Source: a virus
Taxonomy: Duplodnaviria; Heunggongvirae; Uroviricota; Caudoviricetes
Direction: 5' to 3' (one strand)
IMG/VR virus record: IMGVR_UViG_2531839665_000020
Location: 1 to 26,759 of that record
DNA: 26,759 bases
This document shows positions 21,126 through 22,010 of this stretch, in pieces; positions within the stretch are counted from its first letter, which is position 1; each line of letters begins with the position of its first letter. Below the pieces are notes generated by a model. The model saw nothing but the letters and a program-made list of their open reading frames with translations. It ran no database searches and had not been told where the DNA came from. Made by a program: the position numbers and the translations under genes.

Positions 21126-21240
21126 GGTTGGTAATTAAGGAGTTCTCTACGGGTCAGGTGGAGTGCGTGCGCCGGACACGGGTGAGCATCCGGCACGTTC
21201 TTTAAAAATCTGGATAGTCCCAACTTATTTAAACGGTTAA

Positions 21241-21585
21241 TTATCTTGAGTTCATCCAGAACTTATTATTGCAAGCGGGGCAAAAAGTACGAAAATGAGC
21301 ATCAAAGCGCATTATTTCCATTGGTTGCAGTACAGATATTACCTTTTTTCCAAAACATTGTGGGCAAAGATGCACTGTTATCTCGGTATCGCCTATAAAT
21401 TGCTTCTTGGAATACACAAGAGTTCCAGAATCAAGCTTGTTAAGTTTGTAACCTTCCGCCTGTTGCTGAAAGTCTTCTATCTCTGCAATTTTTGCTTTGA
21501 GAGATGCGGCTTCTTCCTGATAAGAGCGCACCATCTCAATGAGCGATACGCATTCAAACTGAACAGACGTAAGTTTTGAAAGCAT
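21241..21585 (-). CDS. Zinc-ribbon hypothetical protein (114 aa), antisense to the dicB operon
   Basis: N-terminal coiled-coil-like region, C-terminal CPQC...CPAC; AT-rich; weak SD; the opposite-strand ORF 21295..21579 has non-protein-like composition. Confidence 0.55.
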   Translation of the reverse strand: MLSKLTSVQFECVSLIEMVRSYQEEAASLKAKIAEIEDFQQQAEGYKLNKLDSGTLVYSKKQFIGDTEITVHLCPQCFGKKVISVLQPMEIMRFDAHFRTFCPACNNKFWMNSR

Positions 21586-22010
21586 ATCGCTGACAGCGGA
21601 ATTTATCTCAGTTTGAGTTTTGCATTCAGAATACCCTTTGCCATTACCGCAGTTTCTTTGATTGCCGACATTGCTGCTGAGAACTCAACTATCACGTTAC
21701 ATACTCTTCTCGTTGTTGGGGATATCCAGATTATACAAATTTCTTGTTGTTGGGGAATAACAGGAACCACCTCGCCTGACGTGGTTAAAAGCAGGCACAC
21801 AACGCGAAAGCGTACGGCGAGGTAGCTGGTTCATAGATAGCCTGTCGTTAAATTTTCGTCGACCGTGCGCTTCCGGTTGTGGCAGTCCGCGAAATGGCGC
21901 GGCGGTAAGTATGGCTGGGGTTTCCTCCATTGCTCCAGAAAATGCACCGGGTTGTCAGGTTGACCATACGCTTAAGTGACAACCCCGCTACAACGCCCTC
22001 TGTTATCAAT

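Follow-up and report, generated by a model that had tools for sequence, protein, structure and literature searches.

What lies in the spacer between ydfC and dicF of the prophage represented by IMG/VR virus record IMGVR_UViG_2531839665_000020, and does it bear on the output of the small RNA (sRNA) DicF and of DicB? The stretch analysed, positions 1 to 26,759 of that record (hereafter the window), corresponds as a whole to a cryptic prophage at the ydfJ (Qin) site of the Shiga toxin-producing Escherichia coli (STEC) O103:H2 strain 12009, and positions 20400-22700 were found to be 100% identical to that strain and to a set of O103, O45 and O121 STEC genomes. An earlier sequence-only reading of the spacer had described an insertion of about 0.9 kb carrying a minus-strand gene for a 114-amino-acid (aa) CxxC...CxxC zinc-ribbon protein, which could either modulate DicF/DicB output or represent an independent moron. 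On the basis of the homology, fold, frameshift, cassette architecture and distribution established here, we propose with considerable confidence that this gene is a frameshifted homologue of Rip1, a known antiphage family, situated in a self-contained antisense prophage cassette, and that the copy in the window is most likely inactive.

The 114-aa open reading frame (ORF) is real, but it is not the whole gene: it represents the C-terminal three-quarters of a 151-aa gene that has been split by a frameshift, a lesion which the sequence-only reading had missed. Homologues of its product measure 151-175 aa and possess an N-terminus beginning MIAELSAAMAAIKETA, and an N-terminus of this type is present in the window in another reading frame, from a GTG codon at 21695. 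The lesion was located by a three-way DNA alignment with two intact alleles, FORC_082 (98.5-99% DNA identity) and MFDS1022581 (85%), both of which are RefSeq 151-aa coding sequences (CDSs) in E. coli. The parts of the disrupted gene are as follows.

21241-21695, minus strand: full extent of the rip1 homologue, with GTG start at 21695 and TAA stop at 21241-21243; disrupted by the frameshift, 151 aa in intact alleles.
21622/21623, minus strand: deletion of 1 nucleotide (nt), AATG-CAAAAC here versus AATGCCAAAAC in the intact allele, which shifts the frame after codon 26.
21603-21695, minus strand: N-terminal fragment ORF, comprising 26 native pore-helix residues, 4 out-of-frame residues and a stop (VIVEFSAAMSAIKETAVMAKGILNAKLKLR, then stop), from translation and homologue alignment.
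21241-21585, minus strand: the 114-aa ORF, equivalent to Rip1 residues 38-151, namely the second half of the long helix and the C-terminal four-Cys beta domain.

The N-terminal fragment spans 30 codons, its stop codon lying at 21603-21605; 17 nt beyond this stop, the 114-aa ORF begins anew from an internal Met, before whose ATG no Shine-Dalgarno (SD) sequence was found. The CxxC motifs occupy residues 74-77 and 102-105 of the 114-aa product, which is entered in RefSeq as WP_001399959.1, 'hypothetical protein'. The frameshifted sequence recurs at 100% identity in many independent assemblies, while in five related genomes (O103/O121) a 1.3-kb IS3-family insertion sequence (IS) is present inside the already frameshifted ORF, near 21327/21328.

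Scans of the ORF against Pfam, NCBIfam and PADLOC (2023) returned nothing above threshold, and the JGI label 'nuclease with TOPRIM domain' was found to be unsupported. Within PHROGs, the window ORF was assigned to phrog_1244, of 'unknown function' (E 3.5e-38; E 2.5e-48 for the intact allele), and with the intact allele as tblastn query, matches were recovered among phage genomes in HkaP of HK620 and HK630, in Pseudomonas Mu-like phages (DMS3, JBD30 and others), in PhiR29_1 and in vB_EcoM-611R5. The HK620 HkaP, JBD30 gp30, PhiR29_1 and 611R5 proteins in turn match phrog_1244 with E values of 1e-40 to 1e-61. The four Cys residues are invariant in the family, which comprises 4061 representatives at 50% clustering (E up to 0.001), and the motifs Y.L, G..VY and LQP are conserved.

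For P0006, a homologue of 155 aa sharing 62% identity with the intact allele, AF2 gave a model (pLDDT 89.9) in which helices at residues 2-24 and 28-79 precede a small C-terminal beta domain, and the only significant PDB matches returned for this model by Foldseek were chains L and M of entry 9oox (E 1.5e-7, probability 1.0), with TM values of 0.62/0.74 to 9oox_M; the likeness of fold accordingly pertains to a homologue and not to the window sequence itself. The title of 9oox describes Escherichia phage HK446 Rip1 ("ring interacting pore 1") in complex with the small terminase of phage T6. A profile built from 61 family members matched 9oox_L over its full length (E 6.9e-44), the intact allele as a single sequence matched the 9oox Rip1 with E 2.4e-7, and the window ORF alone was aligned by phmmer to residues 49-155 of 9oox_L (E 4.9e-6). 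Profile, single-sequence (E 2e-7 to 5e-6) and predicted-fold comparisons all place the gene in the same family as HK446 / P. aeruginosa prophage Rip1 (9oox), with which it shares a size of 151-175 aa, long helices at the N-terminus, a four-Cys beta domain at the C-terminus, and a prophage-borne, stand-alone, antisense disposition; as a stand-alone prophage gene it was encountered in the cryptic Qin-site prophage and in five annotated phage contexts.

Two other identities that were considered, the Zip protein of JBD26 and the anti-sRNA AgvB, proved to concern unrelated loci, and the CA-rich repeats are only loosely like GcvB target sites. Rip1 alleles were also observed to be domain mosaics, the helical N-terminal half being exchanged by recombination separately from the four-Cys C-terminal half: between alleles 1 and 2, identity is 53% for residues 1-75 but 97% for 76-151, and P0010 matches allele 1 exactly over residues 1-62 with a divergent C-terminal domain.

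The mechanism of Rip1 is taken from the literature. According to a review (PMC13434031, summarising Patel et al., Nature 651:1060, 2026), Rip1 is a single prophage-encoded protein that is harmless alone; upon superinfection, 12 Rip1 monomers form a ring around the 11-mer small-terminase ring, the C-terminal half touching the terminase and the N-terminal amphipathic helix building a pore, and these pores permeabilise liposomes and cells, halting phage maturation. The same review reports that escape mutants map to the small terminase in E. coli phages and to the portal in Pseudomonas phages, and that Rip1 homologues are widespread in proteobacterial prophages; a second source on the mechanism is PMC12908700. 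In the published account, Rip1 is an abortive defence expressed from prophages: it responds to the small-terminase (or portal) ring that another phage makes late in infection, around which it assembles as a 12-mer through its C-terminal domains, whereupon its N-terminal helices form a membrane pore and the cell is killed or lysed before progeny mature.

In the window copy, the 1-nt deletion cuts off the pore helix, encoded by codons 1-26, from the 114 codons that specify the remainder of the long helix and the four-Cys sensor domain. A single polypeptide joining the N-terminal amphipathic helix to the C-terminal ring-binding domain is encoded by the intact alleles and not by the window, and we infer that defence function has been lost because the covalent link between pore helix and sensor domain has been lost. 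As judged from its sequence, the window copy is a Rip1 family member by descent, yet a pseudogene, and most likely an inactive one in a decaying prophage, a reading which fits both the IS second hit in related strains and the general decay of the prophage.

The extent of the DNA that accompanies this gene was defined by pairwise alignment with the Qin prophage of K-12 MG1655 (NC_000913.3). Near-identity extends through ydfC and 70 nt more, to 21196, and returns after 21784, through dicF and dicB, the ydfC-dicF spacer measuring approximately 886-906 nt here compared with 340 nt in K-12. There is, as the sequence-only reading had stated, extra DNA relative to K-12, but it amounts to less than the proposed 0.9 kb.

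21197-21784 (588 nt), no strand assigned: segment absent from K-12 Qin, consisting of the Rip1 cassette without its outermost upstream bases and replacing approximately 30-45 nt of K-12.

The presence of the same spacer and ORF in canonical Qin prophages, with no effect on the operon, had been named beforehand as the result that would speak against an insertion of consequence; K-12 Qin lacks the segment. Compared with the K-12 Qin dicB operon (ydfABC-dicF-dicB-ydfD), the flanks are 93-100% identical, and DicF, DicB and an operon-sense hairpin are kept, the difference being that the K-12 spacer is without the cassette. The 588-nt insert occupies the ydfC-dicF slot in 77 of 5426 complete E. coli genomes, whereas a short K-12-like spacer is present in approximately 2,900 E. 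coli genomes. The K-12 filler was assessed as a possible scar of cassette deletion and rejected as such, its likeness to the cassette ends being at shuffle level bar one weak match (11/500 shuffles); the change may have been either an insertion or a deletion. The genes ydfA, ydfC, dicB and a DUF1482 gene all lie on the plus strand, as does dicF, in keeping with the operon orientation described earlier. The ydfC gene is itself damaged here.

20886-21125, plus strand: ydfC, its frame shifted by one additional A that K-12 lacks (RefSeq pseudogene flag and alignment).

In the same region, ydfB is unannotated in the window although its reading frame is present at 20686-20838. A second variable slot lies directly after ydfC, at approximately 21126-21144, 50 nt upstream of the cassette site; in some E. 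coli genomes (L010-L012) it holds a 0.4-0.66-kb insert bracketed by the 19-bp repeat at 21126-21144, encoding an unrelated 106-135-aa ORF on the plus strand and, in two of the three loci, an unrelated 77-91-aa ORF on the minus strand.

The gene is accompanied by conserved noncoding DNA at both ends. When enterobacterial genes were compared, the leader of approximately 105 nt was better conserved than the protein, and its elements, together with the element downstream of the stop codon, are listed below.

21696-21800 (105 nt), minus strand: conserved cassette leader, kept upstream of Rip1 genes with just 26-54% protein identity.
21704-21711, minus strand: SD-like GAGAAGAG.
21712-21721 and 21746-21755, minus strand: direct repeats CCCCAACAAC.
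21720-21732, minus strand: leader motif AATCTGGATATCC.
21730-21735, minus strand: -10-like TATAAT.
21765-21786, minus strand: hairpin AACCAC..GTGGTT.
21787-21796, minus strand: element GCCTGCTTTT.
21197-21221, minus strand: cassette 3' element (GGGACTATCCAGATTTTTAAAGAAC), from comparison of downstream sequences across loci.

Across loci, the leader is composed of GCCTG(T)CTTTT, a hairpin, two direct repeats flanking a -10-like TATAAT/GTTAAT, an SD sequence and a start codon that is often GTG. Besides the CCCCAACAAC repeats, which are replaced by CCCCTACAG in the HkaP/611R5 clade such that both copies change together, the leader holds a CTGGATATCC motif. The 3' element contains an inverted copy of the leader motif, TATCCAGATT, at 21207-21216, and in almost all cassettes GGATATCCAGATTGTTAAAGAGC, directly after the stop codon, represents the inverted complement (10-13 nt) of leader motif AATCTGGATATCC. 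Variants of the leader motif and its 3' copy are mixed, with a matching change in L090 and mismatches in L083, L088 and L089, so that pairing between the 5' and 3' ends of an RNA and a repeated protein-binding site are indistinguishable from these variants. Rfam scans at gathering and E-value thresholds assigned no family to the leader or the hairpins, and RNAalifold on 21 leaders yielded invariant pairs only, with no covariation; because of the latter, a reading of the leader as structured RNA is unsupported.

A moron, as reportedly defined by Juhala and colleagues in 2000, is a transcription unit of its own that has been added between two genes which are direct neighbours in related phages. 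In K-12 Qin and in the approximately 2,900 E. coli genomes mentioned above, the flanking genes are such neighbours, and the unit has a conserved leader with a putative promoter of weak -35, the GC hairpin-T6 terminator usual elsewhere being missing in the window. We propose that the cassette is a small self-contained moron with a Rip1 homologue as cargo, placed antisense to the early-left (dicB) operon in which it lies. The independent moron that had been offered as one of two possibilities is upheld in this form, as a self-contained cassette with a Rip1-family gene that stands antisense in operons of unrelated phages.

In every annotated context examined, the gene is oriented against its neighbours.

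Window: between ydfC and dicF, antisense.
HK620 and HK630: between hkaQ and cIII in the pL operon, antisense.
PhiR29_1: between the yfdP operon and cI, antisense.
611R5: adjoining the repressor gene, antisense.
JBD30: between a DUF1804 (terS-like) gene and terL, antisense.
O157:H7 RacR-type prophage: between ydfA and an exonuclease remnant, antisense; 171-aa copy intact.

The O157:H7 copy (L214 2609-3124; strain 3384), near potC, is 52% identical, has the same leader and is annotated 'hypothetical protein'.

The closest positional equivalent is HkaP of HK620/HK630 (phrog_1244, E 7.9e-51), whose antisense position in the pL operon between N/hkaQ and cIII corresponds to the ydfC-dicF slot and which shares the leader architecture, in which a hairpin occurs together with a -10-like box set between two direct repeats, although it is approximately 30% identical, has CCCCTACAG rather than CCCCAACAAC repeats and ends differently at its 3' side. 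The depositors of the HK620 genome labelled HkaP a 'putative superinfection exclusion protein'. In lambda and P22, sieB-type exclusion genes are lysogen-expressed abortive-infection genes within the early-left (pL) operon of lambdoid phages, SieB being a membrane protein of a different family from Rip1; a sequence relationship between the two was neither found nor sought. The Casadabanvirus moron JBD30 gp30 (phrog_1244, E 2.7e-61) is the sole opposite-orientation gene of its operon, but it differs in its Pseudomonas host, its late-operon location and its lack of the enterobacterial leader and 3' element; PMC11445458 lists it among prophage morons, with the blocking of superinfecting phage as its effect.

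To assess how widely the cassette is distributed, IMG/VR was scanned for an exact 18-mer of the leader, and 79 loci (viral contigs) were examined, the portable-cassette loci being L094-L172, L213 and L214. An ORF matching the Rip1 profile followed the leader in 43 of the 79, while the remaining 36 carried other, uncharacterised cargo: a 26-37-aa Pro-rich peptide with a 148-172-aa two-transmembrane (TM) phrog_6315 protein, a 144-151-aa phrog_5286 protein (NCBI 'ECs1072 family') or a 98-aa orphan. The same 3' element was present in 54/79 loci, and in three (L096, L115 and L133) different cargo occupied the very same ydfC-hairpin junction. Among complete E. coli genomes, 1525 of 5426 (28%) possess the leader; the cluster of the 114-aa protein is recorded on 83 contigs. 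These data tentatively suggest that Rip1 is one among the cargos of a previously unremarked, portable expression cassette found in temperate phages of enterobacteria, with constant leader, swappable cargo and constant 3' element (a terminator being usual), a generalisation that we consider possible but on balance doubtful.

Several points weigh against the interpretation of the window gene as an inactivated Rip1 copy in a self-contained cassette. Identity to HK446 Rip1 is approximately 24-26%, and the gene differs from the latter in its detached N-terminal helix and in its clade, a separate enterobacterial one that has a conserved leader of its own; its trigger and activity are predicted, and target specificity, even pore formation, could differ in this clade. 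The mechanism applied here derives from a review summary and the title of a PDB entry. The GC hairpin and T6 terminator that come after the 3' element at most other loci are missing in the window and in the other Qin-slot copies, and the putative promoter consists of a -10-like TATAAT with a poor -35. Finally, the 114-aa fragment is annotated as a CDS, and reinitiation at its ATG is possible given the 17 nt that separate it from the upstream stop codon.

This last point underlies the alternative that fares best, albeit one that we judge improbable: that the 114-aa product is made and functional, as a sensor-only Rip1 which binds small-terminase rings without forming a pore and might thereby act as a dominant-negative brake on other Rip1 copies or shield co-resident prophages from death triggered by Rip1. 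The product retains the whole C-terminal domain, which is the terminase-ring contact according to the review (PMC13434031), reinitiation is conceivable, and STEC genomes of O103, O45 and O121, with up to 7-8 dicB-type prophage regions, all keep the same frameshift in an identical (100%) sequence. Clonal descent, however, explains the identical sequence across genomes, the ATG lacks an SD sequence, and the IS inside the ORF in five genomes of the same lineage speaks against selection for its retention; the neighbouring ydfC, nleG7, TerB-family gene and fimbrial gene are, moreover, likewise decaying. A frameshifted and most likely inactive Rip1 homologue remains the preferred interpretation.

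The regulatory question with which the locus was approached concerns the sequences between the cassette and dicF and those adjoining ydfC, of which the principal features are as follows.

22012-22063, plus strand: DicF sRNA, intact (Rfam RF00039, 77 bits versus a 48-bit threshold, model positions 1-52).
21167-21196, no strand assigned: GC hairpin just downstream of ydfC, common to K-12 Qin and abutting the cassette end.
21797-21881, plus strand: long RNA hairpin in the sense of the operon, lying outside the cassette in the dicF-proximal spacer that separates it from DicF.

The sequence-only reading had placed a GC hairpin and an 8-bp inverted repeat within the insertion. Both are present, but the hairpin and one arm of the repeat belong to the ordinary Qin spacer: the left arm, ACCTCGCC at 21769-21776, lies in the extra segment, and the other, GGCGAGGT at 21816-21823, in DNA common to K-12. 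By simple arithmetic, approximately 0.8 perfect 8-bp inverted repeats within 60 nt are expected by chance per 900 nt, which makes this one unremarkable alone, although the 81-nt region that it spans folds better than shuffled sequences (z = -3.5 on the plus strand, -2.5 on the minus strand). The GC hairpin at 21167-21196 is more stable in RNA read from the minus strand (z = -2.6) than in RNA read from the plus strand (z = -1.3), and the T-rich run that follows it on the plus strand is cassette derived. The hairpin at 21797-21881 has 18 pairs, four of them compensatory, with wobble pairs that hold only on the plus strand (RNAalifold on seven contexts, and also the single-sequence fold), and it may represent a processing or stability element of the dicF precursor. 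The same hairpin was also observed beside cassettes in L023, L063, L086 and L090, where Rfam finds no DicF.

A cis effect on the dicB operon as the main action of the insert, whether by convergent transcription from the cassette promoter or by a terminator formed at the junction of hairpin and T-rich run, with lowered read-through into dicF and dicB, appears even less probable than a functional 114-aa product. The plus-strand hairpin at 21167-21196 is followed by GUUCUUUAAAAAUCU, a cassette-supplied tail absent in K-12, and as the usual cassette terminator is missing here, the transcript may enter ydfC, ydfB and ydfA. Nevertheless, that hairpin is weak on the plus strand and was not called by the terminator scan, no convincing or conserved plus-strand terminator was found within the insert, and an internal plus-strand terminator sought at the position of HK620 tL1 was neither significant nor conserved. 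The putative cassette promoter (approximately 21730) reads away from dicF; its transcript would, therefore, be antisense to ydfC, ydfB and ydfA and not to dicF. The same cassette, moreover, resides in many unrelated operons and beside repressor genes, so that its placement is not DicF specific. At the K-12 locus, moreover, the dicB operon is in any case repressed by DicA in lysogens. Because the promoter faces away, no convincing plus-strand terminator was found, and DicF and its upstream hairpin are intact, the proposed modulation of DicF/DicB by the antisense gene finds no support, although a modest polar effect may exist.

Least credible of all is a sequencing or assembly error concealing an intact gene in the real organism, for although only one base is affected, the 588 nt recur without alteration in many complete genomes that were assembled independently from different strains, the 114-aa protein cluster is recorded on many contigs, as noted above, and the deleted base is a C in GCC, outside any long homopolymer run.

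The prophage that harbors this cassette comprises an integrase, an excisionase, an exonuclease, a dicA/dicC-type immunity region, replication genes, a Q-type antitermination gene, hokD and paa, while structural genes (head and tail included) and terminase genes are absent and pseudogenes are many. Signs of decay within 1-20000 include a frameshifted nleG7, fragments of a YdfR-family gene, a TerB-family pseudogene and a fimbrial pseudogene. Other features observed in the window are listed below.

5945-7158, no strand assigned: IS3-family element.
15260-16018, no strand assigned: intact paa adhesin gene.
14919-15068 (minus strand) and 10747-10913 (minus strand): Rfam matches to the sok antitoxin RNA adjoining hokD and to the sRNA STnc100, respectively.

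With regard to its meaning, the 'hypothetical protein' between ydfC and dicF becomes recognisable as an inactivated copy of a defence gene, a finding that is in itself of small import. It exposes an annotation gap, in that RefSeq, Pfam, NCBIfam and PADLOC (2023) miss the family, such that many Rip1 homologues are unlabelled, the intact O157:H7 copy included. In the O103/O45/O121 STEC lineage rip1 has been inactivated twice, by a frameshift and then by an IS; one possibility, offered purely by inference, is that such repeated loss reflects the cost of a terminase-triggered suicide gene in strains with many lambdoid prophages. The only part that may be new is the shared cassette with alternative cargo, which is a lead and not a result. 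Its common leader and 3' end provide a sequence handle for finding further lysogen-expressed cargo genes, as well as a defined candidate regulatory element, and if it is true that the cassette marks lysogen-expressed defence genes, the other cargos would represent new antiphage systems and the leader their common regulatory switch.

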